From positions 1 through 47,515 of the forward strand of contig JAFXHY010000209.1 in assembly GCA_017536215.1 (NCBI GenBank): 47,515 nucleotides of DNA, read 5' to 3'. The notes beneath the pieces are model-generated. The model worked only from the letters and a program-made list of their open reading frames with translations, was not told the origin of the DNA and searched no databases. Shown here piece by piece: positions 20,807 to 45,364 of the stretch. Position numbers and translations under genes: made by a program. The DNA comes from Muribaculaceae bacterium (lineage in GTDB: Bacteria; Bacteroidota; Bacteroidia; Bacteroidales; Muribaculaceae). Every line of letters starts with the position of its first letter. Position 1 is the first letter of the stretch.

Positions 20807-22290
20807 AGCGAGAGCCTCTCTTGCGAGCGACACCCTGCGTCGGGTCAGGAACCTCGGTCAGCGGTGGCGGAACACGGGTGCGCCTAAGTTGCAGCCCCAT
20901 AAACAGGACGGCAGCATAATCAAAGGGGAAGACCGCCCATTTTCGTAGCTTTTTTTCTTTGATGTAAGGCAAGTGTCCCGTTCTTCACAGTAGCCCTTCG
21001 GGTGTCGGAGTCTGTAACACTCCATAGCATCGAGTTTTCGGCTCGTGCTGAGCCTATCGCATCTTTCAGAGTTGAAATCATCCTCTATGAAGCCTTCGTT
21101 GATGCCGTTGAAAGCACAGCCCAAACCATCGGCTCTTTATCGGGTCTACCCATCTGCGTGAGCCTTGCAGATTATTGGTGTCGCGCATCGAGCCGCAACG
21201 GTCTATCCACGGACGGCACCGCCGCCATTGTACTTGCCAACATTGTAAGTACCGACATAGAGTGTCGCTGATTTGTCTGCGCCGCTCTTGTTACTCCGGC
21301 ATCCTCGGTCGGGGTCAGTCGTTCCGCCTGTACGTGGCGGCTTCGCCACTCTCCGTGAGTCTTATTCCCTGCTTTCCATCTTTCATCTCCGTTTCCATTC
21401 TCCGGGTATCACTCCAGGCTCATTGTCATTTTTCCTGCACAAAGTTAGTAAGGTCATTCACCGGCGAAAGGGCAAGTTTGCACTCCGTGTTCCTCCGTTT
21501 TTCGCTTCGTTGCAAAACGGCAATCACCCTTGCGCCCTCGGTTCACTTTCGACCTCACTTTGGTTTGTTTGTAAAAATTAAAACAATGAACCATACGTTA
21601 AACCCATCAATTTCAACTACAATGAGATTACAATTCGGAGAACTCAACATCACTCCAAGAGTCGTGAACCGACTCCACGAACTGGACTTCACTGTCCCAG
21701 AACTCGAAGATGCCATCGCTGACCACAAGAGCAGCTGCGACGGCGAACCCTCTGTCTACGTCGGTACTTACGGCAAGTACAACAACGGCTCGCTCTGCGG
21801 CCTGTGGATTGACCTCAGCAGCTTCGACGACTACGACGATTTTATCAATTTCTGCAAGGCTATCCACGCCGACGAGGAAGACCCGGAGCTGATGGCTCAG
21901 GACTTCGAGTGCTTCCCACGGCAGTGGTACAACGAGGGATTCATGGACGAGGACGACTTCAACCATATCCTCGAATACTCTCAGATGTGCGACAAGCATG
22001 GCACAGAGGCCGTCGATGACTATATGGAGTATTACGACGACTTCGACAGCTTCGATGAAGCCTACTGCGGAGAATGGGACAGCGAAGAGGACTTCGCCCG
22101 TAGCATCATCGATGAGTGCTACGACATTGAAAAGTCAATGGGCAATCTCGCCAATTACTTCGATTACGAAGCCTTCGCTCGCGACCTGTTTATGTGGGAC
22201 TACAACATGGGCGCACACAATCACGTGTTCCGCCGCCTCTGACCCCTGACCCGACGACTTCGGGAGTCACTCGCAAGAGTGGCTCTCGCT
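20807..22290. repeat. Giant imperfect inverted repeat A (mirror of ardA)
   Basis: Reverse complement of about 20807-21477 matches about 21529-22290 in ordered blocks: GTCGGTACTTAC, GGCAAGTACAA, TCTGCAAGGCT, CCTGTTTATG, CGTGTTCCGCC, CCTGACCCGACG, CTCGCAAGAG.GGCTCTCGCT. Confidence 0.93.
21586..22242 (+). CDS. ardA: Antirestriction protein ArdA (acidic DNA mimic)
   Basis: VYVGTYGKYNNGSLCGLWIDL, YCGEWDSEEDFA, YFDYEAFARDL; very acidic; alternative start at 21622. Confidence 0.93.
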   Translation: MNHTLNPSISTTMRLQFGELNITPRVVNRLHELDFTVPELEDAIADHKSSCDGEPSVYVGTYGKYNNGSLCGLWIDLSSFDDYDDFINFCKAIHADEEDPELMAQDFECFPRQWYNEGFMDEDDFNHILEYSQMCDKHGTEAVDDYMEYYDDFDSFDEAYCGEWDSEEDFARSIIDECYDIEKSMGNLANYFDYEAFARDLFMWDYNMGAHNHVFRRL

Positions 22291-22297
22291 GCGTTGT

Positions 22298-23473
22298 TTA
22301 TGCTTTTCGAGGAGCTTTCCCTATAATATATCGCTTCGTTAAGTATTCATTTATTGCTTGAAGCGAATAATTATTTAGAGGAAGTTCATTTAGATTTTTA
22401 TATGTTTCTTCCGCAAACATTTCAGCTCTAACTTGTGCTTTGTTTGCTAATTGAAAAAAAGATTCTTCTTCTGTTTCACAGAGCCCTCCAGTTCCGTTTG
22501 GGACAAGACTCCCATGTTGATATAATTTCAAAGCATCTTTCCAAACACTTTCTACCATAATACCTAAATCATGTTCTGTTCCAACTTGGTAAGCCGCAAT
22601 ATAATTCCCAAATGTTTGAACAACTGGATTTACTCCAAAATGAATCATAGCAAATGGCTGTTGATAATGATAATATAAATCCCCTCGCAATGCAAAATCA
22701 TTTATAATATTTGCCAAACAATTGGCATAGCCTTCTCCATAATTAGTGATGTACCAATTAGACACTGCTATGCTTCTGCTTAAATATAAGTCTACAAGAG
22801 CAAGCATATCATATGCAGCAATACCATTTTCTTTTTCTGATAATTCAAACATTCCAGATAAACCAAGTAAATGTTGAAGTTCATAAAGAGCATCTGAACA
22901 TGATTGAATCCCTATTGGACTATGCCAATACGGATTTGTCATAGTAAATACAGGCTGTAAAGCCTTTAGTAAAAAACAAATGCCCTCTTTGTAGATTTTG
23001 GCATTTAAAAACATTTGAGCCAATTGGCTATTTATGTAGGGATGTTTACAATCAGTATATTTCTTTATATATGGAGAAAAATCAATTTTTTCATACGCAA
23101 TTTTCTCCGTAATAGTTTTATAATGTTGAATTTCTGTTCGGCGAAATTCATATTGAGGTCTGCCGTTTTCTTTTACTTTTGAATTGTTGTAATCTTTAAT
23201 AAATTCATGCAGTTCATTATCATCATCTAAATTCATATACTCATTTATTTGAGCATAAGAATATACACTATTTTTAGCTCGACCAAGGATTTCCTTCATC
23301 AAGTTTATACGCAACCGCTCCTCTGAATTTAATTCGGAGTTGTTACTATTATTAGCAATCCACTCACGTAAAGCTTGCTTCTTATCCGTTGTAGATATTA
23401 TTAGTTCCTCCAACTCAGGAAAGGAGGAAACTAAAAAAGCCAATCGTTCTGCATTTTGTCTTACTTCGTCCAT
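22298..23473 (-). CDS. AT-rich hypothetical cargo protein, paralogue of 36929
   Basis: Long AT-rich ORF with its own TAATTTTG promoter (23478-23485, - strand); shares WHSP.G and YLSRSIA with 36929. Confidence 0.8.
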   Translation of the reverse strand: MDEVRQNAERLAFLVSSFPELEELIISTTDKKQALREWIANNSNNSELNSEERLRINLMKEILGRAKNSVYSYAQINEYMNLDDDNELHEFIKDYNNSKVKENGRPQYEFRRTEIQHYKTITEKIAYEKIDFSPYIKKYTDCKHPYINSQLAQMFLNAKIYKEGICFLLKALQPVFTMTNPYWHSPIGIQSCSDALYELQHLLGLSGMFELSEKENGIAAYDMLALVDLYLSRSIAVSNWYITNYGEGYANCLANIINDFALRGDLYYHYQQPFAMIHFGVNPVVQTFGNYIAAYQVGTEHDLGIMVESVWKDALKLYQHGSLVPNGTGGLCETEEESFFQLANKAQVRAEMFAEETYKNLNELPLNNYSLQAINEYLTKRYIIGKAPRKA

Positions 23474-23508
23474 TGTGCAAAATTAGCGATTTTCTGCGAA
23501 AATACCTT

Positions 23509-23543
23509 GTCTTTTAAGGGCTAATTATATAGCGGTAATTTTG
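23509..23543 (+). promoter_or_regulatory. Candidate phage late promoter, copy 1
   Basis: GTCTTTT-N20-TAATTTTG upstream of the head protease. Confidence 0.75.
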
Positions 23544-23564
23544 GCATAGCAAAATTGATTTTCT

Positions 23565-24542
23565 ATGTCTAAAACCGCATACAACATCTCGCTCAAAGGG
23601 TACGTCGGAGGCTCTGACTTCGACCGCAAGACCGTTGACACAACCCTTGCTCAAAACGAGGGTAAGCGCGTCAATGTACTTATCGACAGCCTTGGCGGTT
23701 CTCTCGCCACCGGCTTGTCTATCTCATCGGCGTTCCGCAACCACGGCAATGTTGCTGTCCACTTCGTGGGACTCAATGCCTCGGCTGCAACCATCGCTTC
23801 GCTCGGTGCAGCGCATATCTCGATGGATGCCGGGGCTATGTATCTCGTGCATAAATGCTCAATGGCATTTTTTGAGTGGGGTTCGCTCAACAGCGACCAG
23901 TTCGCTACGCTCATTGCCGACTGTGAGAAGATTAAAGCCGACCTCGATAAGCTCGACCTTAATTGCGCCCAACTCTATGCCTCTCGCTGCAAACGCAAAA
24001 CGCAAGACCTGCTCGCCCTGATGAAAGTCGGAGGCTGGCTCTCGGCAAAGGAAGCCCTCGAATGGGGCTTTGTCGATGAAATCACCGACCTTGCCGACGA
24101 ACCGGCTCCCAAACTCACCGATGCTCTCGCTTCTGCGATGGCCTCAGAGGGTGTGCCGATACCGAACATTCCTGTTTCCGAGGCTGAAAAGGATTCAGCA
24201 TTCGTAAAATTTATCTCCGCTATTGCTTCGATATTCCAATCTAAACCCCATATCGATATTAAACAAGACGAACAACCCACCAACGACCAGTCGGCACGCA
24301 TCGCCGACCTCGAAGCGCAGCTTGCCGACAAGGACAAGACCATTGCCGACAAAGACGCTCTCATCGCTGACCGCGATAAGACCATCGCCGACCTGCAAGC
24401 CAAGCTCGACAAGAAACCGGCTGAGGACACCACGGCAGTCGTAGACGATGCCAAGCCCTCAGGCAACACCGACCCCAAGAACGATGTCGAGCAGTTTGTA
24501 GATACCTACAACTCTGCTCGCGCTCTCTACAACGAAGTATAA
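23565..24542 (+). CDS. ClpP-like prohead protease with coiled-coil (scaffold-like) tail
   Basis: IDSLGGS, GLNASAAT, LVHK, WLSAKEALEWGFVDEI; heptad repeats ADKDKTI/ADKDALI/ADRDKTI. Confidence 0.9.
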   Translation: MSKTAYNISLKGYVGGSDFDRKTVDTTLAQNEGKRVNVLIDSLGGSLATGLSISSAFRNHGNVAVHFVGLNASAATIASLGAAHISMDAGAMYLVHKCSMAFFEWGSLNSDQFATLIADCEKIKADLDKLDLNCAQLYASRCKRKTQDLLALMKVGGWLSAKEALEWGFVDEITDLADEPAPKLTDALASAMASEGVPIPNIPVSEAEKDSAFVKFISAIASIFQSKPHIDIKQDEQPTNDQSARIADLEAQLADKDKTIADKDALIADRDKTIADLQAKLDKKPAEDTTAVVDDAKPSGNTDPKNDVEQFVDTYNSARALYNEV

Positions 24543-24563
24543 ACCATAAAACCCTATACCACA

Positions 24564-26172: not shown

Positions 26173-26844
26173 ATGGATAGAGCCGTCAGGAAAGGAGCAA
26201 TCGCGTTGGACGAGATGTTGAACGACATCGAAGTGCCTTCGCTCGACGTTCCCGACCTCGACGGCTCTTTTGTTCCGACCGGCGAAGCCAAAGACCTGTT
26301 CGCCGAGAAGAAGCGAGCGGCATGGAAAGATGTGCAACAGGCAGAAGCCCGTTGCGACTTCGCCCCCAATAAGGTGCGCATTTCCTACCGCAATCCGGCT
26401 TTCGGAATAATCTCGCTCTGGAAAAAATCTATTTATGGACGCACTCTCACAGAAATAAAATCTGATGAGAGTATGGTGGAGAAATTTGCCGAAGGCATGA
26501 ACACCCTTATCCGGCAAATTCTCGGTCACTCGCTCGCGTCAGGCGACTGGTGCATCGTAACCTCGCCCAAGCGCAGACACAAGACACAGAACTTTGCCTC
26601 GATGATCTCAGCGAAACTCGGAGAACTTCTCGGCATACCGTTCTATGAAGACCTTGCCGAGTGCCACTCCAAGCATCGTGTCGGGGCTGTCTTTACCTTT
26701 GGAAAAGAACCGCCCAAAGAAAGTAACATCATCGTCTTTGACGATTTCGTCACCACCGGCGCCACAATGATTTCAATGCGCGAGCTGCTAATGCCACTCG
26801 GCAAAAATCTTGTGTTTTTCACCGGAATAAACAACAAACTTTGA
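26173..26844 (+). CDS. Phosphoribosyltransferase-fold (ComF-like) protein
   Basis: PRPP-binding loop IIVFDDFVTTGATM. Confidence 0.75.
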   Translation: MDRAVRKGAIALDEMLNDIEVPSLDVPDLDGSFVPTGEAKDLFAEKKRAAWKDVQQAEARCDFAPNKVRISYRNPAFGIISLWKKSIYGRTLTEIKSDESMVEKFAEGMNTLIRQILGHSLASGDWCIVTSPKRRHKTQNFASMISAKLGELLGIPFYEDLAECHSKHRVGAVFTFGKEPPKESNIIVFDDFVTTGATMISMRELLMPLGKNLVFFTGINNKL

Positions 26845-26875
26845 CCCCTGCGACCAAAATAATTTTGACCCCTCT

Positions 26876-27493
26876 ATGGATAATAAATTCACTGAACTAA
26901 TCGGACAATGGCTGCAAACGCCCGAAGCGGAGCGCGACTACACCATAGGCGCACTCTATCTGCTGAAACTCTCCGGCAATCAAATCATGTATCGCAACAT
27001 TGTTGCTCAACTTGACCGCCGCCACGATGTCGTGGAGTATCAGCTTCAGAAATACTACAATTTCCGCGTTCAGGCTCTGACACACGCCCAAGTTGAGGAA
27101 ATGTCGGCACAAGTCGAACAGATTGTTGCCGACCATATTCCACTTGCCACCGAAGCCGACAAGCAACCGCAGAAAGGCAAGCGAGCCGACCACGACTCTT
27201 TGCCGGACGACATCAAGGCTCGCTACGTTGAGAACCTTTCGCTTCTACAACGTATGCGCGAGCTGCATCTGCGCCTCCGCTCGCTCTCGCTTGACAACGC
27301 TCCATGCCCGGATTCCGAGCGTTATCCGTTCTTGAAAGAACTTATATCGCTCGACAAGAAACTTCATGCCAACTGGGAGGCATACGACCACTATGTCGCA
27401 CCAAGCCCCGATGCCGTTCCCTCGCGTCCGGCTAAGACCGTCCGTTCCGCCGCAGGTGCTAAGAATACCACCAAGAAGTCTGCGAAGAAATGA
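26876..27493 (+). CDS. Hypothetical phage protein
   Basis: Helical ORF, translationally coupled to the next gene. Confidence 0.75.
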   Translation: MDNKFTELIGQWLQTPEAERDYTIGALYLLKLSGNQIMYRNIVAQLDRRHDVVEYQLQKYYNFRVQALTHAQVEEMSAQVEQIVADHIPLATEADKQPQKGKRADHDSLPDDIKARYVENLSLLQRMRELHLRLRSLSLDNAPCPDSERYPFLKELISLDKKLHANWEAYDHYVAPSPDAVPSRPAKTVRSAAGAKNTTKKSAKK

Positions 27494-28011
27494 AACGCAC
27501 TGCCAACATTGACCAAATCCTTCGTCCGTTGAAAGTAACGCCATATCAGGCTTATCTTTCAAATGCCGTGCAGGTTGCCGACATCCTCGAATGGATATTG
27601 GCACAAGTCGGCATTGCTGAAGTTTGGCAGACTTCTTTCTCTATCTCCGAGGAGTTTTTGCGACGGCTCTATTTTATCACCAAGGATAAAAAGGTCAGTC
27701 GCATCAACCTTGTTCTCGACCACAAGGCTACGAACAAGACACTCAAACTTTGGGCGTTCATCACCCAAGTTATTGAGCGTACCTATCTTGCAGATAACCA
27801 CAGCAAGATATTACTCGTCCAGTCCGAGCGAGGCGACACGGTAAGTGTTATCACCTCGCAAAACCTGACACGAGGCAACCGCCACGAGTCAGCTTTTATC
27901 TCCACCGACCCGGCGATCTTCGCGACGCTTAAAGCGCAGGTCGATGATTTAATCACCAATCATTCAGTGCCGCTCCATGACCTATTCCGACAACGACTTG
28001 ACGCAGATTGA
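27490..28011 (+). CDS. Phospholipase D-fold nuclease-like protein
   Basis: NHSKILLV...TSQNLT (HxK...S-x-N variant of the HKD motif). Confidence 0.65.
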   Translation: MKRTANIDQILRPLKVTPYQAYLSNAVQVADILEWILAQVGIAEVWQTSFSISEEFLRRLYFITKDKKVSRINLVLDHKATNKTLKLWAFITQVIERTYLADNHSKILLVQSERGDTVSVITSQNLTRGNRHESAFISTDPAIFATLKAQVDDLITNHSVPLHDLFRQRLDAD

Positions 28012-28886: not shown

Positions 28887-30504
28887 CAAGCCCCAACGCC
28901 TGACGCAGCTTATCGGCGCGAACACCACCGTTATTGTCGCAGGGCGACGCACCGGCAAAACGGACAGCATAGCTGCTCCGTTTGTTCTGCGCAATATGCA
29001 GCGTATGCCCGGCTCTACCGGCGGCATCGTCGTGCCGACTTTCAAACACGGTTTGACGAACACCATCCCCGGACTGCTCGCCGCTTGGAAACGCTGGGGC
29101 TACATCGAGGGTGTGCATTATGTGGTCGGTAAGAAACCGCTCAAATCCTTTGCGCGGCCAATTACCGAGCCTAACGACTACGAACACGTTATCTCTTTCT
29201 ATAATGGCTCTATCGCCATTATCATCTCGCAAGACCGCCCCGGCTCGTCCAACTCGCTGACCCTGTCGTGGCTTCTCGTCGACGAGGCGAAGTTCATCAA
29301 TTACGACAAGCTCAAAGATGAAACGCTCCCGGCCAACGGCGGCATCAAGTCGTACTTCGGCAAGCACTCCTTTAATCACTCTATAATGATACTGAGTGAT
29401 ATGCCGCAAACCAAGAAAGGCTCGTGGTTTCTCCACTACCGCGAGAAGATGGACTCCGACCTTATCGCTACAATAGAGGGAACGGTTTACGAGATATGGC
29501 GCATCAAAGACCGCATACGGCAGATGCGCTCCAAGGGTGAGCATATCCCCGATTACCTGAAAGGCAAACTGCGCAAGCTCGACCGGCAACTCAATCAGTT
29601 GCGGTCGGTCGCTGTCTACTATAAAGAATACAGCAGCATCGAGAACTTGCAACTTCTCGGAGAGAACTACATAAAGCAGATGAAGCGCGACCTCACGCCG
29701 CTTACGTTCCAAACCTCAATCCTTTGCCGACGCATAGGCATTGCCAAAGATGGTTTCTATTCCTCGATGCGTGAGGGTCACAAGTACGACGGCAACAACA
29801 ACGAATACCTCGAAAGTCTCGGTCTCGATGTTGCTCTACGTCACCCCGACATTGTGGAAACCATGTCGTCGCTCGCCGATGGCGATGTTGACCCCGACGC
29901 GCCTATCTGCATCGGCATGGACTACAATGCAAATATAAACTGGATTGTAGCCGGACAGCCTCGCGACCGTCGACTCAATGTGATTAAGTCATTCTACGTC
30001 AAGTTTGAGCGTAAGATACCGGCACTCATAGAGGACTTCTGCCGCTATTATGCCTCGCACCGCAACAAAACCGTTGTGTTTTATTACGATGCCACGGCTC
30101 TCGGCTCAAACTATGCCGTCAACGAACAGGATTTCCGTTGGGTGGTAGTCCACGAGTTCGAGCGGCAGGGATGGCGTTGCGAGGCAGTGTACCTCGGAAA
30201 CCCGATGCGACACGATGAAAAGTACCTGCTCATCAACCAAGGCTTCGCAGGTAAGCAACGCCTGATGCCATTTTTCAACCGCTCGAACAACGAGGACTTG
30301 ATTCTCGCTATCCAGTCCGCCGGTGTCAGCCGTGGACGCAACGGCTTCCGCAAAGACAAGTCCGGCGAAAAGCTTGCCGAAAGTGAGGAGGATTTATTGG
30401 AGCATCGCACAGATGGTACAGATGCTTTTGACACGCTGTATATAGGTTGCGAGAAGTTCCCTTATAGGGATACTTTCACATTGCCAACAGCGGGCATCAT
30501 ATAA
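28852..30504 (+). CDS. terL: Terminase large subunit
   Basis: Walker A AGRRTGKT, Walker B LLVDEAK, RNase H-like IGMDYN and DGTDAFD. Confidence 0.88.
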   Translation: METAEKKRIYFNKPQRLTQLIGANTTVIVAGRRTGKTDSIAAPFVLRNMQRMPGSTGGIVVPTFKHGLTNTIPGLLAAWKRWGYIEGVHYVVGKKPLKSFARPITEPNDYEHVISFYNGSIAIIISQDRPGSSNSLTLSWLLVDEAKFINYDKLKDETLPANGGIKSYFGKHSFNHSIMILSDMPQTKKGSWFLHYREKMDSDLIATIEGTVYEIWRIKDRIRQMRSKGEHIPDYLKGKLRKLDRQLNQLRSVAVYYKEYSSIENLQLLGENYIKQMKRDLTPLTFQTSILCRRIGIAKDGFYSSMREGHKYDGNNNEYLESLGLDVALRHPDIVETMSSLADGDVDPDAPICIGMDYNANINWIVAGQPRDRRLNVIKSFYVKFERKIPALIEDFCRYYASHRNKTVVFYYDATALGSNYAVNEQDFRWVVVHEFERQGWRCEAVYLGNPMRHDEKYLLINQGFAGKQRLMPFFNRSNNEDLILAIQSAGVSRGRNGFRKDKSGEKLAESEEDLLEHRTDGTDAFDTLYIGCEKFPYRDTFTLPTAGII

Positions 30505-30554
30505 ATCCTCTGAGTCCGAAGTTATCGGCTTGCCGCTTTGCTCCGCAAAGAACA

Positions 30555-30665
30555 CTCCTCGAACACCGCACCGACGGCACCGATGCCTTCGATACTCTCT
30601 ACATCGGTTGCGAGAAATTCCCATACCACGATTCTTTTTCGCTGTCTACGAGCGGAGTTTTATAG
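30555..30665 (+). pseudogene. Orphan second copy of the terL 3' end (37 codons)
   Basis: Reads LLEHRTDGTDAFDTLYIGCEKFPYHDSFSLSTSGVL* versus LLEHRTDGTDAFDTLYIGCEKFPYRDTFTLPTAGII* at 30394-30504. Confidence 0.92.
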
Positions 30666-31992: not shown

Positions 31993-32197
31993 TTGTCGAT
32001 AACTTCTTTGATTTTGCTGTTGGTTGGCTCACAAATTATTAGTAACTTTGCAATTACTTAACAGCAAAATCTGTAAATGACCCATTGACATCGAAAATAT
32101 AACGGCGCGAGCCGACAATTTTTTGAAACTCCCAAGTAGTTGTTACAGGCTTTGGTCGGCCTTCAGATGCTACAAGGGAGTTTTGCTTTTGCTATCT

Positions 32198-33943
32198 ATG
32201 GATCGAATAGATATGATACATACTGTTGGGCGAGAGTTCTTGGTCTCAAATATTGAGAACAATGAATTCAGCTATCAACAAGTAATAGACCGTTCATTGA
32301 GCGGCCATTATAAACTTGATATTCGTTTCTTTGATGAAAGTTCTGAAACAGCAGTTTTAATCGAAACCAAACGTAGGTTTACCAATACAGATAAAGAACA
32401 ATTGTTTGCATATGTTTCGTTGGAACAAGAACTGAATCCAGAAACTAATATTATAGCCATACTCGCTAATACTGACAATGATCAGATTAAAGTTTGGAAA
32501 TTCTCTAATAATGAAGCAGCAGGTTTGGAATTGAGCGATTCCAAATTAAAGAGTTTTGAGGAGTATAAAATGTGCTTTATCCCTCAAAATGTAAACGATA
32601 GAAATGCCGTTTTAGAGAATACTTCCAAACTTAATAAAATACTTCATGACAATGGTATTCCTGAAAAGTTAAGGAGCCAATTTGTTGGTACTTGCCTTCT
32701 TGCATTAAAAGAACGTTTGAAATTTAAAGGACTTTCCACATTTCAAATAAATGCAGGAATAAAAGAGATATTGGCATCTATGCTCCATGACAGCCTTGAT
32801 AGGGCCAAGAAACTCGTCGTATTACAAAATAACATTCTTGAAAGTCAAAGCGTTTCTTCTTTACGCTCAGAGGAATATCAAAAGATACTTCTTTTTATAA
32901 AAAAGAATATTTTACCGTACATAAATGAGTATACAACAGAGGGACACGACATACTTAGCTACTTCTTCACCACTTTCAATAAGTACGTAGCACGAGAAGA
33001 CAAAAATCAAGCGTTTACGCCAAATCACATCGCTCACTTCATGTGTAAGGTTGCAGGTATTCACCGCAATATCCGTGTTCTCGACCCAACTTGCGGTTCC
33101 GGAACTTTCTTGGTTCAATCTATGTCACAAATTCTTAAAGAATGTGAGACAGCAAGCGAGAAAAAGCATGTAAAAGAACATCAAATATATGGAATAGAAT
33201 TTGACGAGAATGTATATGGATTAGCAACCACCAATATGTTAATTCATGGTGATGGCAACTCTAACATTCAAGCAGGTTCTTGTTTTGACAAAAAGCAATG
33301 GATTGAATCATCTAATATAAATTTAGTTTTGATGAACCCACCTTATAATGCTTCAAAAAATCAAGTACCGTCTAAATATGCTCGTCTATTTGGGTCTAAA
33401 TCTACGGACCCGACAAAAGGATTAGGTTTTGTACAATATATTGCAGACACTGTAAATCAAGGTAAGCTTTTGACATTATTGCCAATGGCTTGTGCGCTTA
33501 CATCCAGTTCTGTCATCACTGATTTTAAGGAAAAAATGCTTCAAAAACACACCTTGGATGCTGTTTTTTCTTTACCTCCTGATATGTTCTATCCAGGAGC
33601 AAGTGCCGTGGCTATATGTATGGTTTTTAATTTAGGGCAACCACATCCATCTGATTTCGAAACTTTCTTCGGTTATTTTCGAGAAGATGGTTTTGAGAAA
33701 CGGAAAGGTGTTGGTCGCGTCGATATAAATGAAGTATGGGATAGCATAGAATCTGAATGGCTATCTTTATATCGCCACCGCTCTGAAATGCCGGGTAAAA
33801 GTGTTAATAGGGTTATTACTTCAAAAGATGAATGGTGCGCTGAAGCTTATATGGAAACAGATTACTCAGTTTTATCTGACAATAATTTCATTTCCGTGAT
33901 GAAATCTTATGCTGCATATTTAACAGAAAATGAATCCATTTAG
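32198..33943 (+). CDS. BcgI-like (type IIB/IIG) fused endonuclease-N6-adenine methyltransferase
   Basis: N-terminal D...LIETK nuclease motif, FTPNHI, LDPTCGSGTF (motif I), MNPPY (motif IV). Confidence 0.88.
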   Translation: MDRIDMIHTVGREFLVSNIENNEFSYQQVIDRSLSGHYKLDIRFFDESSETAVLIETKRRFTNTDKEQLFAYVSLEQELNPETNIIAILANTDNDQIKVWKFSNNEAAGLELSDSKLKSFEEYKMCFIPQNVNDRNAVLENTSKLNKILHDNGIPEKLRSQFVGTCLLALKERLKFKGLSTFQINAGIKEILASMLHDSLDRAKKLVVLQNNILESQSVSSLRSEEYQKILLFIKKNILPYINEYTTEGHDILSYFFTTFNKYVAREDKNQAFTPNHIAHFMCKVAGIHRNIRVLDPTCGSGTFLVQSMSQILKECETASEKKHVKEHQIYGIEFDENVYGLATTNMLIHGDGNSNIQAGSCFDKKQWIESSNINLVLMNPPYNASKNQVPSKYARLFGSKSTDPTKGLGFVQYIADTVNQGKLLTLLPMACALTSSSVITDFKEKMLQKHTLDAVFSLPPDMFYPGASAVAICMVFNLGQPHPSDFETFFGYFREDGFEKRKGVGRVDINEVWDSIESEWLSLYRHRSEMPGKSVNRVITSKDEWCAEAYMETDYSVLSDNNFISVMKSYAAYLTENESI

Positions 33944-34964
33944 TAATACTAAACTTTTCTCAGTAAAGGAATTATTCCCTTTACTTGTAAACGGAAAAGG
34001 TAATAATAACTTATTATCTGATGGTGATTCTGTACCATATCTTGGTGCAAAAAAGGATGATAATGGAGTGATGCGATATTGTGCCTACGATAGCGCACTA
34101 ATTATGAAAGGAAATTGTATCTGTTTCATCTGTAATGGAGCGGGGTCAGTGGGTTATACCCTTTATATGGATAGACCATTTATAGCTACATCAGATATTG
34201 TTGCTGGCTATAATGAAAAACTTAATCCATATATAGCAATGTACCTTATTTCTCTCTTTGATTTAGAGCGTCCACGTTTTTCATACGGGCGAAAATGGAA
34301 AAAAACGCTTAAGGACACAACGATCCCACTTCCTCAAACAGAAAACGGCACAGTTGATTGGGCGGCAGTAGATTCTTATATTAAAAATTCTATATTGCCG
34401 TTGCTTCCTACCCGTGCGAAGACAATTTGGAATCGTGGACCCATTAATAAACCGATATTTCAGAAAAAGATAAATCTTAATGATAAAATATGGCGTTATT
34501 TCCATATTGCAACATTGTTTAACTCATTTGAAAAATGCAAATGTTCAAGCGCTTCAGAATTATTGGAAGATGGCAATGAAATAGCATATATCGGGGCGAA
34601 AAAAAGTGACAATGGTGTCATGAAATATGTAAAAAGAGAAGAATCCTTAGTTACTAAAGGGAACTGTATTGTTTTTATTGGTGATGGGCAGGGATCAGTA
34701 GGTTATTGTTTGTATCAACCGAATGATTTTATTGGCTCTACAACTCTTGTTGCCGGATATATAGATAACTTGAATCAATATATAGCTCAATTCTTAGTCA
34801 CAGTTCTTGATATGGAAAGATATAGGTATTCTTTCGGGCGTAAATACAATAAGAGTGCTATTATTAATAGTAAAATTAAGCTACCAATAGACGATAAAGG
34901 TAAACCAGATTGGCAGTTTATGGAGAACTATATAAAGAGTCTACCTTTCAGTTCAAATATCTAA
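33930..34964 (+). CDS. HsdS-like specificity subunit (two TRD repeats)
   Basis: Internal duplication YLGAKKDDNGV/YIGAKKSDNGV, FSYGRK/YSFGRK, and PDWQFMENYIK. Confidence 0.88.
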   Translation: MNPFSNTKLFSVKELFPLLVNGKGNNNLLSDGDSVPYLGAKKDDNGVMRYCAYDSALIMKGNCICFICNGAGSVGYTLYMDRPFIATSDIVAGYNEKLNPYIAMYLISLFDLERPRFSYGRKWKKTLKDTTIPLPQTENGTVDWAAVDSYIKNSILPLLPTRAKTIWNRGPINKPIFQKKINLNDKIWRYFHIATLFNSFEKCKCSSASELLEDGNEIAYIGAKKSDNGVMKYVKREESLVTKGNCIVFIGDGQGSVGYCLYQPNDFIGSTTLVAGYIDNLNQYIAQFLVTVLDMERYRYSFGRKYNKSAIINSKIKLPIDDKGKPDWQFMENYIKSLPFSSNI

Positions 34965-34991
34965 GTTAACAATACTTTTTATAATATTTAA

Positions 34992-35909
34992 ATGGAACTC
35001 GATACTCTTAAACAAGAAACCAATCTTCGTAAGGCTTGGCCTAACGAAGCCAAAGACTTTACTCCGTGGCTTGCCGAACATTTAAGTTATGTTGGCGACA
35101 TTCTCGACATGGAATTGGAACTCGTTGAGAAAGAATCAAAGGTAGGAGGCTATTCCGCTGACATTTTAGCGAAAGAAGCTAATACCGACAATTATGTCGT
35201 TATCGAAAATCAGTTGGAAGATTCCAACCATACTCATCTCGGACAACTTTTAACATACGCTTCGGGCAAACAAGCCAAAGCAATAGTTTGGGTCGTTAAA
35301 AAAGCACGTGACGAACATAGAGAGGCTATTGAATGGCTCAATGACAATACTGTCCCTCAAATTGCTTTTTACTTGTTAGAAATTGAACTTTGGCAAATCG
35401 GCTCATCCAAATTAGCTCCCAAATTTAATATTGTGGAACGACCTAATGAATGGGCAAAGACGATAAAACCAAATACTGACGCTTCCGACACTCAGGTATT
35501 GCAACTTGAATTTTGGCAAGCATTTAATGACCATGCCGGGACTACGACATTCATCAAGTCGTTCAGACTCCGTACTGCTAAATCTCAAAATTGGTATGAC
35601 CTTGCTGTTGGAGATAGTCGTTTTCATATTTGCTTAGAAGCTAAAAAACAGAAAGGTGAAGCCACGGTCGGAATATACATTCCGGACGACAAACAGCTAT
35701 ATAATGGTTTCCTTAAGCACAAAACCGAAATAGCAACAGCACTCGGTGTTGCAGAAAATGACATCGAATGGAAAGATGCCTCAAAAGCCACCCGCTTTTA
35801 TCTAAAGAAAAATTTCGATATGGCCGATACCGGTCAATGGATAATCGTTTTCAAATGGTATATTGAAAACTGTTTGGCAATTAAAAAACTAATTCCATCA
35901 ATTATTTGA
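34992..35909 (+). CDS. NucS-like PD-(D/E)xK nuclease with a DUF4268-like C-terminus
   Basis: EAKDFTPWL, ADIL, VVIENQL...HLGQLLTYASG, EFWQAF. Confidence 0.8.
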   Translation: MELDTLKQETNLRKAWPNEAKDFTPWLAEHLSYVGDILDMELELVEKESKVGGYSADILAKEANTDNYVVIENQLEDSNHTHLGQLLTYASGKQAKAIVWVVKKARDEHREAIEWLNDNTVPQIAFYLLEIELWQIGSSKLAPKFNIVERPNEWAKTIKPNTDASDTQVLQLEFWQAFNDHAGTTTFIKSFRLRTAKSQNWYDLAVGDSRFHICLEAKKQKGEATVGIYIPDDKQLYNGFLKHKTEIATALGVAENDIEWKDASKATRFYLKKNFDMADTGQWIIVFKWYIENCLAIKKLIPSII

Positions 35910-38178: not shown

Positions 38179-38182
38179 ATAC

Positions 38183-38236: not shown

Positions 38237-39056
38237 GGCGATGAATTTTGAGCATAGAGAGGAATTTGACCGTGCTTTGATGCCCTTTGAGGGAGGGATT
38301 TATCAGTAATTACCCCGAACTTTATGTTTCGTCGACTCGTACATTGAGCGATTTTGTTCTCCTGTTCTTCATCGGTTGGGCTTCGTTATTCCGTCTACGT
38401 TACGCTTTGGCCGTCGGTGATTACACGGTGTTGATGTTCCGTATTCGCTTGGGCTGTCGGCCGTTCACAGCCAAATATGCCTTGCAGGTTACGTGAGCCA
38501 TTATTTTGACAAGACGTTTCATAGGGCATACTTGTATGACGCGCTCGGAGCAGCATTGTATTTACATCGCGAAGTTAGCGTCTTTATCTACGCTCGAAAA
38601 GGGCAGGTAAATTCGCTCAAAAAATCTTCCTTTTTTACTGCTTAAAAAAGAGTATTCAAGGGGCAAGCCCTTTTGGACGAACCCTTGTCGGCTAACGTGC
38701 CGGGAGGCACTGATTGGGTCAGACGCATATTCTGCGGTGTAAAACAAACGCGCCCCGGCGCACAAGTAAAACCCAATAAAACTTCAAAACAATGACCCAC
38801 GTAATGAACATATTCGACAGCTCTCTCAACTCCGACAGCTCAATCAAATACTACTCAGTAGAAGTAATCACTTTCGATGGCGAAAGCTACACAGAAGAAA
38901 TCGAAGCCCGCGACGCCGACGAAGCCCAGGAAATCGCAGCTTCAATGTACGACGATGTCGACTACACAATGGTTCAGGGTTGCTTCGCATACTGATAAAT
39001 CAATTCTCCCTCAAAGGGGCTGCTTCGGCAGCCTTCTTTTTTGCTCATTCATCGCC
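38237..39056. repeat. Giant imperfect inverted repeat B (mirror of the 38792 gene)
   Basis: Ordered matches CACGTAA, CCGACAGC, GTAATCAC, CGAAGCCC, TCAATGTACGA, TACTGATAAATC, CTCCCTCAAAGGG, TTCATCGCC. Confidence 0.92.
38792..38995 (+). CDS. Small acidic protein (candidate anti-defence factor)
   Basis: 67 aa with 15 D/E and 2 K/R; A-rich leader; terminator at 39018-39042. Confidence 0.8.
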   Translation: MTHVMNIFDSSLNSDSSIKYYSVEVITFDGESYTEEIEARDADEAQEIAASMYDDVDYTMVQGCFAY

Positions 39057-39909
39057 AACGGCAGCTCCGTTGATTTCCACTGCGTTAATGCTGTCGCGGT
39101 CAGACTCTTTAGCCGTGAGGGCTATCGGGCAGGTGCCTGTCGGCCATCCGAGCTGTCCGCTCCGTTCAATTTGCCGATTTCCATTGTTTCAGGTCGGGTG
39201 ATACTTCGTTTGTTGTCGGAGGATTGAGAGCTATTCTCGCACCGTTGAACTCGACCTTTGCCCTCGCTGACGCACCAACCGCAGGGCTATGGCTCATCTC
39301 GTCCGCTGCCTCTTTTACCTTTTACCATTTACCTTTTGCCTATCAGATGTGTACATCATTGTGAAGCGGTCAGACTTTCGGGCGCGACGGACACCGCCGC
39401 CGCTTGCCTCGATTGAATGCGTTCGATGTGTTCTTGCTACGCAAGCGGCAAGCCGGTGAGGCGTCGCTCCATATCAAGCGCAAGACCATACAGCAGCACT
39501 CTTTAGCCGCATCCTCAGCCTACGCCATGGGTAAACCTTGAACGACATACCGCTGAACTTGCTGCCACGATTGAGTGCGGAGTTGTGTGCCGGTCTCTCA
39601 GGCGGGGCAGTTTGAACCTCTTTTCTGCGTTCAGTTTTCCTTTTGCCAATCTCGTATTCGGGGAGTGAACCGAGGTCTATTTTTCCTGTACAAAGTTAGG
39701 TCGCCAACTCAACTTCCCTCCGGCTCTCTAAAACCGGCTGCGCCTATTTCTGCGACAATTTTACGAAAAATGGTACAAGCCTCATTTTTAGACGCCCGGC
39801 TTAAAATTCTCTGTAAATTTTTGTTCGGTCTCAAACAGCTTCCCACTTGATTGTACCGTAAAAATTAAGAGCCTCGGCTCACATTTCAAACCCCAAATAC
39901 TTCAAAACT

Positions 39910-40200
39910 ATGGCAAAGAAAACTAAAAAATCCGCAGAGAACATCACAGCTCAAACAGCAGTTCCAGCCGTCGAGACTACTCCGGCTACATCAACTCCCA
40001 AGCTCATCGTGGCTCAACGCAAGTTCAACCGCTGGTATGTCTACTTCAAGGGCGTTGCCCCCAAGGACAATGTAGGCTGCGGATGCAAGACAGCCAAGAG
40101 TGCTATGCGCTATATGCACTTGCTCAGAGCTCGCTACGGAGCAACGATTTCACAAAACATCTATGAACGCCTCCAGTTCGAGGCCGCGAGAGAGGCGTAA
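39910..40200 (+). CDS. Small basic hypothetical protein
   Basis: A-rich leader; first gene of module C. Confidence 0.8.
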   Translation: MAKKTKKSAENITAQTAVPAVETTPATSTPKLIVAQRKFNRWYVYFKGVAPKDNVGCGCKTAKSAMRYMHLLRARYGATISQNIYERLQFEAAREA

Positions 40201-40248
40201 GCCTCCCTCGCTTTTAGCCCGAAAGTTAAACCGCTAATTCTCACAATC

Positions 40249-40452
40249 ATGTACGAATACATCTGCTACACAAAACAAGGAAAATGGAAGTTCAATGCTG
40301 ACAGCGATATGGACGCGATGCGCACAGCCCTTTATTACTGTTGGCGCGACGGCGAGGACTTTATCAAGGTCGAGTTCGTCAAAGGTTGCGAGAATTACAC
40401 GCTCTCAATCCTACATATCGACAACAATTCACGCGAAGTATTCACCCTCTAA
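40249..40452 (+). CDS. Small hypothetical protein
   Basis: Second gene of module C. Confidence 0.75.
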   Translation: MYEYICYTKQGKWKFNADSDMDAMRTALYYCWRDGEDFIKVEFVKGCENYTLSILHIDNNSREVFTL

Positions 40453-40463
40453 AACCCGAAACA

Positions 40464-40718
40464 ATGGAAATCAATTACGGCAAATTCACCGAACAAGAGC
40501 TGCAAGTAATCCTCGATGCAGCGCGTACTATCAACTACGCCTTTGGCACTCAATTTCCGAGCCACAGCGAGCAGATAGCTCTCCTGATTGAAGACCTGCA
40601 CTTCCGCATCATCAATCAAATAGTCATTCAGAGCTACAATGCACTTCGCAAGAAGTACATCGAGCGTGGCATCGACCCCGACGCTCCCGATTTCGTTCCC
40701 GACCATTTGGAGAAATAA
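40464..40718 (+). CDS. Small hypothetical protein
   Basis: Start MEINYGKF after AAACCCGAAACA; followed by a terminator. Confidence 0.75.
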   Translation: MEINYGKFTEQELQVILDAARTINYAFGTQFPSHSEQIALLIEDLHFRIINQIVIQSYNALRKKYIERGIDPDAPDFVPDHLEK

Positions 40719-40739
40719 CTTCTCCAAACCGTCCGCATC

Positions 40740-40772: not shown

Positions 40773-40785
40773 GCTGTCTATCGGT

Positions 40786-40820
40786 GTCTTTTCGGCTGCA
40801 TCAACTGCAAACTACATTTG
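40786..40820 (+). promoter_or_regulatory. Candidate phage late promoter, copy 2
   Basis: GTCTTTT-N20-TACATTTG. Confidence 0.75.
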
Positions 40821-40824
40821 CAGT

Positions 40825-41925: not shown

Positions 41926-41928
41926 CCA

Positions 41929-42162: not shown

Positions 42163-42247
42163 TATTCTCAATAATAAAGGTCAATCTTTGGTAATCAGAG
42201 AATTTTGTGCTAATTTTGCACATAGCAAACTTCAAAATTTTCTGCAT

Positions 42248-42619
42248 ATGAACTATAATGGTATACAAATGGCGGCAGTAATTAAAGCTGCAAATGCTAT
42301 GATAGCTGCCGATGGTCGTATAGACCAAGCCGAGACTCAACTGCTCTCTCGCGAACTTATCAACTTTGGTGTAGAGCCGCAACAGCTTCCGCAGCTTCTT
42401 GAACTCAGCAAAGTAATGGAACCCACTACTATGCTTGCAACTCTTGCTGCAATGAATGAGTCGCAAAAGAAATACGTTTCAGGATTCCTCGCTACAATTA
42501 TGATTAGTGATGGAGACATCGATGACTCGGAGATGAAGCTTTGGCAACTGACATCAACTCTGATGGGATGCCCAACTATGACTCTACAAGAGGCCCTCGA
42601 ATATTGGGGTAATAATTAA
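42248..42619 (+). CDS. TerB-family (tellurite-resistance-like) protein, moron
   Basis: IAADGRIDQAE and MISDGDIDDSE paired motifs; own TAATTTTG promoter; AT-rich. Confidence 0.8.
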   Translation: MNYNGIQMAAVIKAANAMIAADGRIDQAETQLLSRELINFGVEPQQLPQLLELSKVMEPTTMLATLAAMNESQKKYVSGFLATIMISDGDIDDSEMKLWQLTSTLMGCPTMTLQEALEYWGNN

Positions 42620-42634
42620 GACGCCTAAATAAGC

Positions 42635-42669
42635 GTCTTTTCGCATCCAACATACCGTCCATAACTTTG
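42635..42669 (+). promoter_or_regulatory. Candidate phage late promoter, copy 3
   Basis: GTCTTTT-N20-TAACTTTG. Confidence 0.75.
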
Positions 42670-42688
42670 CTGAAAATCTCAGCAAGTT

Positions 42689-44029
42689 ATGGACGCTTCT
42701 TTTTCTCTAAACTACAACTCCGTTGAGAACGTGCCGGGCTATGAAGCCCGTGCAGCGTTCATTGTCAACTCCGCATCCGTATTCAAGGAGGATGTGGATA
42801 TTGTGCCGACTATCGTAGACGATAGTCTGAGTTATATTCCGTGGGGCGGCGACAATCAGATGCCGTTCAATATTCTTGACCTTATCGAGAAAGACGAAAC
42901 ACTCGCCACCTGCCAGTGTTTCAACGCCGAGGTCTGTTATGGCGCAGGGCTCAGGTATGATACCTGCATCGCTTCCGCAGCGGTCAAGAGTGCCGTCGAG
43001 GACTTCACTCTTGACAACGACCTCGCCTCATACTTTCTCGGAGTGTCGCAGGACTTTAAGCACTTCGGCTTTGCCGTGTCGGTGCTTATTCTCAACGAGG
43101 ACGGCTCGCGCATCGTCCGTCTGTTGAGAAAGGAAGCCTGTTATTGCCGCTTCACACCGGCTGACAAACACGGTCGCATTTCCAAAATCCTTTACGCCAA
43201 TTGGCGCAAACCTCTCTCGTCGCGCAGCGACATCGAGGAAATAGACCTGCTCGACCCGGCTTCTCCGTGGCGAGATCTGCAAGACAAACTCGCCCAAAAA
43301 ACACACTGCCGCAAGTTCGCCATCGTCAGCCGTATTCCTACGGTTGACTCTACCTATTATCCTATTCCTTATTATGGTGCGTTGTTCCGAGGCAAGTGGT
43401 ACAACATCAAACAGCTTATCGGCATTGCTAAGGAAGCGAAGCTGAAAAATTCAGCGCCGATTAAGTACCACATCGAGATAGGCAAGACATACTGGGAGTC
43501 CATATTCCGTGCCGAGGGCATCACCGACCGCCGCAAGCAACAGGAGCGCATTGTGCGCGAGAAGCAGCAAATCCTCGATTTCCTGACAGGCGCGGAGAAC
43601 TCCGGGAAAGCCTGGTTCTCCACTTTCTACATCTCGCCCGACGGCAAAGAGCAGCACGATGTCGTAATCAACAAGATTGACGACTCGAAAGAGGGCGGCG
43701 ATTGGGAAACCGACATTCAAGAAGCAATCAATATGATATGCTTTACTATGCGTGTGCATAGTAACCTTGTCGGCTCAGTCCCCGGCAAAGCCCAGTCCAA
43801 CAACTCCGGCTCGGACAAGCGCGAACTTTACACAATCGCCCAAGCCCTTCAGAAACCGTATCACGACCTGCTCTTTACCGTCCATCGCATCATCATCCGC
43901 TTTAACAAGTGGGATAACGTCACCGTAGGTGTGCCGTTTATCCAACTTACGACTCTGGACGAACATCAAGACGCAAAGCAGGTTAAACTTCCAAACTCCA
44001 ACTCAGACAATGAAACTGATAACGACTGA
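42689..44029 (+). CDS. Portal protein
   Basis: 446 aa; YIPWGGDNQMP, YYPIPYY, LTGAENSGK, VHSNLVG, SGSDKRE pattern of Bacteroidetes phage portals. Confidence 0.8.
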   Translation: MDASFSLNYNSVENVPGYEARAAFIVNSASVFKEDVDIVPTIVDDSLSYIPWGGDNQMPFNILDLIEKDETLATCQCFNAEVCYGAGLRYDTCIASAAVKSAVEDFTLDNDLASYFLGVSQDFKHFGFAVSVLILNEDGSRIVRLLRKEACYCRFTPADKHGRISKILYANWRKPLSSRSDIEEIDLLDPASPWRDLQDKLAQKTHCRKFAIVSRIPTVDSTYYPIPYYGALFRGKWYNIKQLIGIAKEAKLKNSAPIKYHIEIGKTYWESIFRAEGITDRRKQQERIVREKQQILDFLTGAENSGKAWFSTFYISPDGKEQHDVVINKIDDSKEGGDWETDIQEAINMICFTMRVHSNLVGSVPGKAQSNNSGSDKRELYTIAQALQKPYHDLLFTVHRIIIRFNKWDNVTVGVPFIQLTTLDEHQDAKQVKLPNSNSDNETDND

Positions 44030-44846
44030 GGTGCAGTTACGCGCCCATATCCCCAACATCATCGCCACGGTCAAGGGCGAGATGCCCTATATCGAAAGGC
44101 TTGCGCACTTTCTCGACCTTGCCGAAGACTGGGTAAAAACGACTTTCACTTCGGAAAGTACGTTCAACACTATCTGCGGTTATACCGACAGCAACAATAT
44201 CAAGATATTGTGCAGCCGTTTGGTCGTTGCCGACGCTCTGCGCCGTGCAATTCCCTCGCTCGACATCGTGCTTACTCCAAATGGCTTTGGAGTTGTCAGC
44301 ACTCAGAATCTCGCGCCGGCATCCAAGCCACGTGTCGACAGGCTCGTCGGCTCGATGCTCGCTCACCGCGACGACTGCATCGCTGCACTTCTACCCGAAC
44401 TCGTCGGGGCATCGAAGTGGCTCACATCCAAGCAAGCCGACTTCTTCGGCGCAACACTTTTCCCTGACCTCGCTATCGTTGACAGCATCGGTAACGTGCA
44501 GGGATGCCGTTGGGAAAAGTATCTCGAACTCCGCTCAAAGGTCATAGACCTTGAAGCCTCGTTAGCCGAAGAATGGTTCTCTCGTGAGCTGATGGAAAGC
44601 CTCAGATATAGCAACCTTATCAAGCAGATAAGTTTCCAGAAAGCGTTAGTCGTGAATCAAATTCAATCCCAAATCGTGGGCTATCTTACAGTCGGGAGTT
44701 TCAATTCACGTCGCCTTGCCGACATAGTGAACTATATCCGTCAGGACGAGGACGAATTTCACGAATGGCATACATCGGAAACCGCGAAGCTGTTCTCGCC
44801 GCCGGTATTCCGCAACGAAAAGAAAGCGCGTGGCTATTTCTTCTGA
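44010..44846 (+). CDS. Putative head-completion/adaptor protein (DUF6712-like)
   Basis: Overlaps the portal stop; AIPSLDIVLTPNGFGVVS, APASKPRV. Confidence 0.6.
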   Translation: MKLITTEVQLRAHIPNIIATVKGEMPYIERLAHFLDLAEDWVKTTFTSESTFNTICGYTDSNNIKILCSRLVVADALRRAIPSLDIVLTPNGFGVVSTQNLAPASKPRVDRLVGSMLAHRDDCIAALLPELVGASKWLTSKQADFFGATLFPDLAIVDSIGNVQGCRWEKYLELRSKVIDLEASLAEEWFSRELMESLRYSNLIKQISFQKALVVNQIQSQIVGYLTVGSFNSRRLADIVNYIRQDEDEFHEWHTSETAKLFSPPVFRNEKKARGYFF

Positions 44847-45364
44847 GGCATACAGCAGTCGGTGAGCCACGAAGTCGCGGATGTTCCTTTGCTGATATGA
44901 TGAAACTGAGGGTCATGGCACGGGACACTGATTTTCCGAGGCGAAGTTAGAATATCCGCTCACTTGTCAAGGACACCGCAAGTTGTCTGCCATTCTCATA
45001 CTTCCGAAGCGCATCCAATCCTTGACATCTCCGTTCGCTACGGATATTCAATTACTTGCCCGTAAAATCTGAAGTGCCTCGGCACATAACCCCAAAAACA
45101 GTTTCATCATGATTACATCAGCAAATCACATCAAACAAGACGACTTCGTCAACCTCACCGACTATTCGGCTGTATGCCCCAAAGGCAAACGCACTTTCTT
45201 CACTTTCGTTCACTTCTTGGACTACTCGACGGCTCACTGGAGCAACATCTTCGCTCTCAACCGCAAGGATGCCATGACGCAAGTCCTCGCCAAGTTCTCG
45301 GACTGCATTGAGCATATCCGCGAAATCGCCCTCTATGAGAAAGACGTGGATTGAAACTCCCGAC
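44691..45364. repeat. Imperfect inverted repeat D (mirror of the 45109 gene, overlapping the 44010 CDS)
   Basis: GTCGGGAGTTTCAATTCACGTC (44691-44712) versus GACGTGGATTGAAACTCCCGAC (45343-45364), 21/22 complementary; also CAGTTTCATCAT, CGACTTCGT, CTCACCGACT, GCTGTATGCC, CGGATATTC, TCCTTGACA. Confidence 0.92.
45109..45354 (+). CDS. Small hypothetical protein (module D)
   Basis: Leader like those of modules B and C; hairpin at 45374-45402 downstream. Confidence 0.75.
   Translation: MITSANHIKQDDFVNLTDYSAVCPKGKRTFFTFVHFLDYSTAHWSNIFALNRKDAMTQVLAKFSDCIEHIREIALYEKDVD

Follow-up and report, generated by a model that had tools for sequence, protein, structure and literature searches.

Gene-length inverted copies that co-evolve with their genes in a Muribaculaceae tailed prophage: probable single-stranded DNA expression cassettes

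Why should a tailed prophage keep, beside several of its small genes, degenerate reverse-complement copies of those genes? The question is raised by a 47,515-nt stretch of DNA (hereafter the window) from a Muribaculaceae bacterium (GenBank assembly GCA_017536215.1, contig JAFXHY010000209.1), in which a temperate tailed prophage occupies plus-strand positions 12588-47515, adjoining a tRNA gene (12314-12386) and truncated by the contig end. The initial annotation had recognised four loci, unrelated in sequence and alike in layout, in which genes are paired with an inverted copy (here termed the mirror), and had proposed that one strand of each folds back to give a promoter and a double-stranded template for early anti-defence genes. 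The components of these loci, designated modules A to D, are as follows.

20807-21455, minus strand: module A mirror arm, a non-coding degenerate copy of ardA, its leader and its terminator; predicted non-template strand of the fold-back
21440-21447, minus strand: module A -7 box, TAACTTTG
21448-21570, no strand assigned: module A promoter duplex and branched loop (DNA fold)
21571-21576, plus strand: module A GTAAAA leader with the predicted transcription start, placed by its spacing from the -7 box
21586-22242, plus strand: ardA anti-restriction gene (PF07275)
22255-22290, plus strand: module A terminator-like hairpin region, which pairs with the outer end of the mirror
38237-38564, minus strand: module B mirror arm
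38570-38577, minus strand: module B -7 box, TAACTTCG
38739-39056, plus strand: module B leader, gene for a 67-amino-acid (aa) acidic protein (38792-38995) and 3' hairpin
39116-39693, minus strand: module C mirror arm
39691-39698, minus strand: module C -7 box, TAACTTTG
39858-40718, plus strand: module C leader and three small genes (39910-40200, 40249-40452, 40464-40718); pairing reaches 40552
44691-44947, minus strand: module D mirror arm, of which 44691-44846 doubles as the coding 3' end of a DUF6712 gene
44942-44949, minus strand: module D -7 box, TAACTTCG
45062-45364, plus strand: module D leader and gene for an 81-aa protein (45109-45354)

The reverse complement of each left arm was aligned locally, with gaps, to the corresponding right arm and compared with 200 dinucleotide shuffles. 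The scores were 373 for A (20807-21455 against 21551-22290; shuffle maximum 82, z 40), 196 for B (38237-38564 against 38740-39056; maximum 66, z 23), 381 for C (39116-39693 against 39851-40552; maximum 74, z 40) and 157 for D (44691-44947 against 45054-45364; maximum 65, z 19), which confirmed the four degenerate inverted copies, all with identical orientation. A sliding scan of the window placed the same modules as its top four peaks (169-200), the next peak reaching 83. When the 216 contigs of the host genome were each compared with themselves at permissive settings, only this contig and one weak 290-nt match came up, and a box-anchored scan of 701 kb of that genome gave a single match with a score of 99, versus 171-334 for the modules.

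Each module carries, as originally described, a minus-strand box of the form TAACTT(T/C)G and a plus-strand GTAAAA (at 21571, 38739, 39858 and 45062). Other details of that description had to be revised. Perfect pairing runs are shorter than the reported blocks of 6-20 nt, with a median of 2-3 nt and a maximum of 12-15 nt. The loops, given as 50-140 nt long and structured, are predicted to be structured, largely as promoter duplex, but the unaligned middles measure 95-175 nt; they could not be aligned to each other across all modules. Pairing covers the genes in general, in module A together with the terminator, except that the third gene of module C is mirrored for its first ~90 nt only. The mirrors are mostly shorter than the genes, with the gaps chiefly in the mirror for A, C and D, and the many gaps break any reading frame that would allow them to be taken for genes themselves. 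The mirror of module D overlaps the final 156 nt of a coding gene (44013-44846; DUF6712).

Are the mirrors retained in relatives? A set of 131 ardA loci was examined (the window included, some records being present twice), 122 of which were usable, i.e. had at least 600 nt of upstream sequence and a single mapped gene. A mirror was detected in 73/79 loci at 66-100% identity, the six exceptions being partial ardA matches, and in 12 of the 16 loci at 50-66% identity. With identical copies removed, mirrors were present in 35/35 relatives of module C (one contig-edge locus excluded), 33/34 of module B and 5/5 of module D. Homologues with the genes and without the mirrors, which had been named in advance as evidence against a function, thus did not emerge in the core clade, and the divergence of the relatives that carry mirrors rules out an assembly artefact. 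Records of the close ardA relatives are mostly from Muribaculaceae, Prevotella, Porphyromonadaceae or Bacteroidales. A lone mirror-ardA module, preceded by a shared sequence of 160-190 nt, was also observed near positions 8700-10700 of loci L108, L109, L120, L133 and L134, at the edge of large defence islands with BREX-like, type I restriction-modification (RM), McrBC and reverse transcriptase genes; no integrase or relaxase was detected in these islands up to the contig ends, their far ends being unassembled.

Among 58 distinct full-length A modules, the median nucleotide identity was 56% for mirrors versus 80% for genes. In 95-100% of the pairs below 90% identity, a mirror scored higher with its own gene than with the gene of the other module, a preference that fell to 51% in pairs above 95% identity. 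Compensation was measured in 27 disjoint A pairs, with mirror-mirror and gene-gene alignments made independently of the pairing and both directions counted. A change in the gene was accompanied by a change of the partner base in the mirror in 43.5% of cases, versus 25-31% for partners slid by 1-3 nt, and the pair was restored by 241 of 400 double changes (60%), versus 24-28% in the slid controls. The mirror arms therefore co-vary with their genes, a point that the initial annotation had put forward for testing, and their decay without compensatory change was not what was found in the core clade.

Module D provides the strongest case. In the window, the coding end of the DUF6712 gene (its last 156 nt) pairs with the gene of module D with a score of 74 (shuffle maximum 43). 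The orthologous ends in two relatives without the latter gene do not pair with it (24 and 26); the end in a third relative, which has a short D mirror, scored 19, and two others were intermediate (45 and 49), while the end of the DUF6712 protein is conserved in all six compared. In module D, then, an existing coding sequence was recruited as the mirror. This speaks for selection on pairing, and is not explicable by a decaying duplicate.

The mismatches indicate which of the strands folds. G.T mismatches in the window number 86 on the minus strand versus 36 on the plus strand, for a ratio of 1.26:1 predicted from composition (p 0.001). The same minus-strand excess was found in 21/23 A modules (less than 90% identical to each other), 35/35 C modules, 32/33 B modules and 5/5 D modules. 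The minus strand is the template strand of the module genes, and the mismatches thus appear to favour template-strand folding.

This strand also carries the predicted promoter. The Bacteroides promoter consensus is TAnnTTTG at -7 with TTTG near -33, according to the accessible text of PMC7366714. In 23/23 representative A modules, TAnnTTTG lies at the mirror's base on the minus strand, versus 0/23 with the box on the plus strand, and a plus-strand promoter of the TAnnTTTG type occurs within 120 nt of the start in 0/74 B, C and D loci. In 103 distinct minus-strand DNA folds, the TTTG is predicted to be paired with the far arm in 85-98% of cases and the invariant A in 15%; ordinary host boxes (120 of 160 sampled) are paired in 12-28%. 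The unaligned middles of the modules are predicted to fold largely into the promoter duplex, and G(T/G)AAAA of the mirror pairs with the template of the GTAAAA leader, i.e. with the predicted start. The open A may represent a pre-melted start, comparable to the -11 A in sigma-70 promoters. The proposal of a fold-back promoter with a duplex template is thus supported by conservation, compensation, G.T bias and promoter geometry, whereas the single-stranded DNA stage is something that we infer. Four metatranscriptome assemblies searched with two regions yielded scattered, strandless contigs of related strains, for modules and structural genes alike.

The product of ardA (218 aa) belongs to the ArdA family (PF07275, E 4e-34; phrog_2059), in agreement with the early anti-defence role originally ascribed to all the modules. 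The part of that claim which concerns the five other small genes found no such support: profile searches assigned them to no family (the match of the acidic gene of module B to PF14207 is weak and below the cut-off), and those of B, C1 and D have no solved structural relatives.

We consider it likely that the modules are single-stranded DNA expression cassettes, which would fold in vivo, be transcribed from the fold and be shut off in double-stranded DNA. The template (minus) strand would enter a new cell alone and fold back, the mirror standing in for the absent partner all the way from promoter to terminator; host RNA polymerase would then produce ArdA and the small proteins ahead of second-strand synthesis. 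The likely gain of a gene-length mirror over a short single-strand promoter such as Frpo (see below) would be to peel the mRNA off the template and to permit normal termination, and the frequent gaps likely stop the repeat from behaving like a perfect palindrome when the DNA is double-stranded. The single strand would most likely come from conjugative transfer driven by a putative helper element; to our knowledge, a single-stranded DNA stage is not known in tailed phages. Taken as a whole, this scheme, i.e. a co-evolving mirror cassette served by conjugative transfer, seems to us probable by a narrow measure.

The source of the single strand was approached through elements that share the modules, among them integrase-primase islands with no capsid gene (L102 and L104). 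Eight satellite-like islands (L102, L104, L437, L467, L471, L486, L497 and L501), previously undescribed, were recognised; their order is integrase, DUF3987, BT4734-like/PriCT-2 primase, shared motif, clustered modules A-D and defence-like cargo. Phages and satellites have in common a promoter-poor non-coding region of 1.2-2 kb.

Shared non-coding region: L086, 7090-8690; L090, 7250-9390; L104, 8170-9400; L102, 3500-5400

This region contains one to three repeat units of ~450 nt, with a conserved branched hairpin core that displays compensatory variants; no Rfam match was obtained for L086, L104 or L102. In complete phage relatives it lies between the lysis and tape-measure genes, which places it beyond the contig end of the window. 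We regard it as a candidate transfer, packaging or second-strand origin. The hairpin motif was detected in 27/301 genomes of the family (two candidates scored per genome) and was absent from 401 order-level genomes. Among 30 motif loci in genomes, 16 are located by phage genes and 7 by the satellite primase, and 7 are unassigned. Metagenomes contributed 77 distinct loci (of 86), comprising 48 with phage genes (several also with the satellite primase), 15 with satellite genes only and 14 that are short or unassigned. Wherever mirror modules were found near the motif in these 77 loci, they were on the motif strand and 3' of it (24/24), an arrangement that would correspond to the leading-region geometry behind a 5'-first entry point. 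The primases of phage and satellites are unrelated, yet the motif and modules are common to both. Motif and mirrors are both absent from three distant phages of the same build, including the cultured BT-TP2, and are therefore best seen as added traits.

Several candidates for a link between the motif and a known origin of transfer (oriT) were rejected. Its likeness to the listed MOB-V nick sites is limited to 5 nt. The motif shares a 12-nt word with three MOB-V loci, L531 has a hairpin like it ahead of its relaxase gene (score 28, shuffle maximum 30), and small Acinetobacter plasmids and microviruses gave matches of 25 nt (E 0.1-6), but all of these were within chance.

Elements of conjugative type from other families were also examined, at five ardA loci (L326-L330).

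Conjugative transposon ardA stems: L326, 9100-10190; L328, 9400-10500; L327; L330; L329, 9900-11300

In four of them, beside tra genes, TACCTTTG is present on the template strand only, together with a long stem over the leader, and the gene mirror is weak or absent. The fifth, L329, is part of a locus resembling an element of the integrative and conjugative type (ICE) and has a full-length gene mirror (z 22); RteC, a topoisomerase and, 10 kb away, a relaxase are encoded nearby, with no TraM on that contig. Where one contig held both ardA and a relaxase gene, the two were co-oriented (3/3). The ardA stems of Bacteroidales conjugative transposons are candidate Bacteroidota equivalents of Frpo. 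The ardA designs of conjugative elements, the leading-region geometry and the mirror-less distant phages together favour conjugative hitch-hiking of the prophage, and conjugation is slightly favoured over virion-linked entry as the source of a putative single-stranded stage. Given the rest of the scheme, we rate 5'-first transfer at the phage-satellite hairpin motif, with the modules as the leading region, as having marginally more for it than against it.

A number of results weigh against this scheme. No relaxase or tra gene was detected beside the motif (0/77 metagenome loci, 0/30 genome loci), and the motif profile gave zero matches at E <0.5 in 63 + 9 relaxase or ICE loci (PF03432 and PF01076 relaxases only). 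A relaxase was not found by Pfam, PHROGs or NCBIfam in the window, nor in five complete relatives (unmatched genes tested from two), and PF03432 was not found in the 69%-complete host genome. Among ardA loci below 50% identity only 1/27 passed the mirror test, and some phage relatives with distant ardA genes have weak mirrors only. In pairs more than 95% identical compensation is almost nil, which suggests that repair is slow and stepwise. The spacing to the -33 element is mixed (17-20 nt in 67/117 TTG matches), and in double-stranded DNA the -7 box forms a complete leftward promoter into the mirror, whose putative product the scheme leaves unexplained. L329 shows the opposite wobble bias (14 vs 22) and a degenerate box (CACCTTTG), and the invariant A is predicted to be paired in 4/4 ICE folds. 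Finally, part of the wobble bias could stem from deamination of an exposed minus strand and not from selection; the sign would be the same, so that the bias tells which strand is special more firmly than why. The combination of an integrase with no detected relaxase is that of relaxase-less integrative and mobilisable elements (iOriT), but the oriT akin to that of a helper conjugative element, which is the other mark of such elements, was not seen in 77 motif and 72 relaxase or ICE loci.

In a rival reading with the same fold-back cassette, the motif would be a packaging or genome-end signal of phages and satellites and the DNA would reach the cytoplasm as one strand, the other being stripped at entry, as in gene transfer agents (GTAs), or the DNA being packaged single-stranded. 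The assigned motif loci are confined to tape-measure phages and capsid-less primase satellites, with no relaxase among them, and a motif common only to phage and satellites does look like a helper-satellite packaging signal. A conserved phospholipase D (PLD)-like nuclease gene beside the terminase is in keeping with such entry, as are a ComEC-family gene of the host and a phage gene for a phosphoribosyltransferase (PRTase) fold with a weak ComF match (E 4e-4, motif only), uptake of the Bartonella GTA (BaGTA) requiring comEC and comF (accessible text of PMC5496983). The head and tail genes are nevertheless typical of a double-stranded phage, the distant relatives lack mirrors, and the same promoter design is found in conjugative transposons. 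Moreover, competence uptake is 3'-first in the organisms in which it is known, whereas modules 3' of the motif on the template strand fit 5'-first entry. Virion-linked delivery is in our opinion unlikely, although it deserves serious attention, and the existence of a widespread gut clade of tailed phages and satellites that deliver a single strand in this way, from a hairpin signal and with fold-back anti-defence cassettes, is correspondingly doubtful.

The wobble bias would be identical (as G.U) if the pairing served RNA, whether a minus-strand read-through transcript that folds, a leftward sense-like decoy or a plus-strand transcript that hides its ribosome site; RNA folds, too, are more stable on the minus strand, the box also qualifies as a leftward promoter when the DNA is double-stranded, and a convergent minus-strand gene (22298-23473) comes after ardA. 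However, an RNA started at the box contains the mirror only and cannot fold back, the wobble direction disfavours a plus-strand RNA, and pairing does not stop at the start but runs on upstream across the -7 box, leaving the A open, which makes sense only for a DNA promoter; we regard an RNA-level role as improbable. Equally little credence is given to a fold formed on single-stranded DNA that is exposed by the phage's own replication or induction through strand displacement by the primase-helicase. The fusion of the phage primase to a P-loop domain and the archaeo-eukaryotic primase (AEP)-type enzyme encoded beside the motif in satellites would suit this idea, but protection from restriction helps on arrival in a new host more than in a resident one, and motif and modules are common to phage and satellites despite their unrelated primases. 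That the mirrors are inverted duplications in neutral decay, or arose by template switching, has been largely refuted, and is the least credible reading of all. A few mirrors are much closer to their own gene, with perfect runs of up to 50 nt, from which it follows that re-copying happens, and close pairs show little compensation; neutrality is contradicted by the near-universal retention of mirrors at four unrelated genes, the fixed promoter placement, the strand bias, the 60% compensation and the recruitment of a coding sequence as the mirror of module D.

Profile matches in the prophage comprised an integrase, a primase-helicase (a fusion of the primase with a P-loop domain), a head protease of ClpP type, a terminase, type I M and S proteins and a portal; a putative capsid was so labelled from the position of its gene only. 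An amidase and a tape-measure protein are encoded in addition by five complete relatives, 44-47 kb in length (tail and lysin genes were also seen there), and the window and these relatives together display the terminase, portal, head protease, tape measure, lysin and integrase of a siphovirus-like temperate phage. A search of 50,697 phage records found no close cultured isolate. On contigs C35 and C179, the host genome has two separate tape-measure loci of the same phage family, and therefore contains more than one related prophage. Rfam recognised only a tRNA above threshold in the window. The modules do not resemble a diversity-generating retroelement: the repeat is inverted and indel-rich, and reverse transcriptase was not found in the window.

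Some other features of the prophage are worth mentioning. Highly conserved genes for a PRTase-fold, a coiled-coil and a PLD-like nuclease protein (26173-28011) lie between a tail-tube-like gene and the terminase gene; identification of the first (26173-26844) as ComF was rejected, the PRTase fold being all that the weak match and a low-confidence model indicate. A conserved 163-aa protein is encoded after the primase (19724-20215) and has a weak relative at the equivalent position in BT-TP2; it was discarded as a relaxase candidate, its confident model (pLDDT 86) having zero matches in PDB and only unnamed clusters in the Atlas. Inverted repeats (19444-19557 and 19682-19731) flanking an AT-rich tract directly 3' of the primase-helicase gene are likely a replication origin. 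At 30400-30637, a 77-nt direct repeat (74%) copies the 3' end of the terminase gene, and is likely a scar left when cargo was inserted; short repeats related to it (31920, 36278 and 38106) enclose the RM and cargo genes. The type I M and S genes (32123-35909) are of low GC content and lack an R gene, in a prophage that carries ardA.

How do the modules compare with known systems? BT-TP2 (PQ571279) and its kin have a similar build, with a primase, two small genes, ClpP, capsid, terminase (27% identical to that of the prophage), portal, tape measure and integrase, but lack the mirror modules, an ardA match and the shared motif. The BaGTA offers a precedent for virion-linked entry, as its tailed-particle DNA enters the cytoplasm single-stranded via ComEC; GTAs carry host fragments for recombination, however, and the accessible text of PMC5496983 does not mention self-expression cassettes for them. 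A preprint on the Hodor megaplasmid of Bacillota (PMC12934698) does not mention a single-strand feature in its accessible part. Relaxase-less mobilisable elements, i.e. iOriT elements and mobilisable genomic islands (MGIs) mobilised by SXT, likewise combine an integrase and a cis-acting site without conjugation genes (PMC5704250, PMC11389934 and bioRxiv 10.64898/2026.01.13.699239, as far as their accessible text goes), and the satellites share the leading-region geometry with them. Unlike these elements, the prophage has a full virion module, and its candidate site matches no relaxase-linked origin tested. If conjugative hitch-hiking is true, the prophage would have two ways to travel; otherwise, the modules would imply a novel virion route. 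In either case, a complete temperate phage would regularly pass through a single-stranded entry stage.

Among tailed phages, coliphage N4 transcribes its early genes from hairpin-bearing single-stranded templates. It does so with a virion RNA polymerase and short hairpins, whereas the prophage yielded no polymerase gene and its boxes are of host type. A literature search, which did not extend to most subscription papers or to bioRxiv supplements, turned up no title or abstract on mirrors of gene length or on single-strand promoters in tailed phages. The modules are thus the first candidate for a Frpo-like design in Bacteroidota in the literature searched.

In the Frpo/ssi promoters of plasmids F and ColIb-P9, in whose literature Masai and Arai (1997) is reportedly cited, the template strand folds to rebuild promoter boxes and drives establishment genes of the ardA type, as is proposed for the modules, and both are predicted to be off once the second strand is made. 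According to the accessible text of PMC9849209 and PMC11541004, Frpo consists of stem-loops with -10 and -35 boxes that drive leading genes until second-strand synthesis; it was sought in regulatory regions of 50-350 bp, whereas the partner arm of the modules is 260-650 nt long and extends over gene and terminator. The modules further differ in their Bacteroidota -7 box and their location in a tailed prophage with no detected relaxase, and the likeness described here is one of design. As a tag that is easy to search for, the mirror marks early anti-defence genes, and flags five uncharacterised small proteins. As far as sequence comparison can tell, the modules form a real, selected and strand-specific fold-back, present in phage, satellites and at least one ICE-like element, which would work like Frpo but span whole genes. 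This would stretch the single-strand promoter beyond a short hairpin, to an entire transcription unit kept by compensatory evolution over hundreds of bases.

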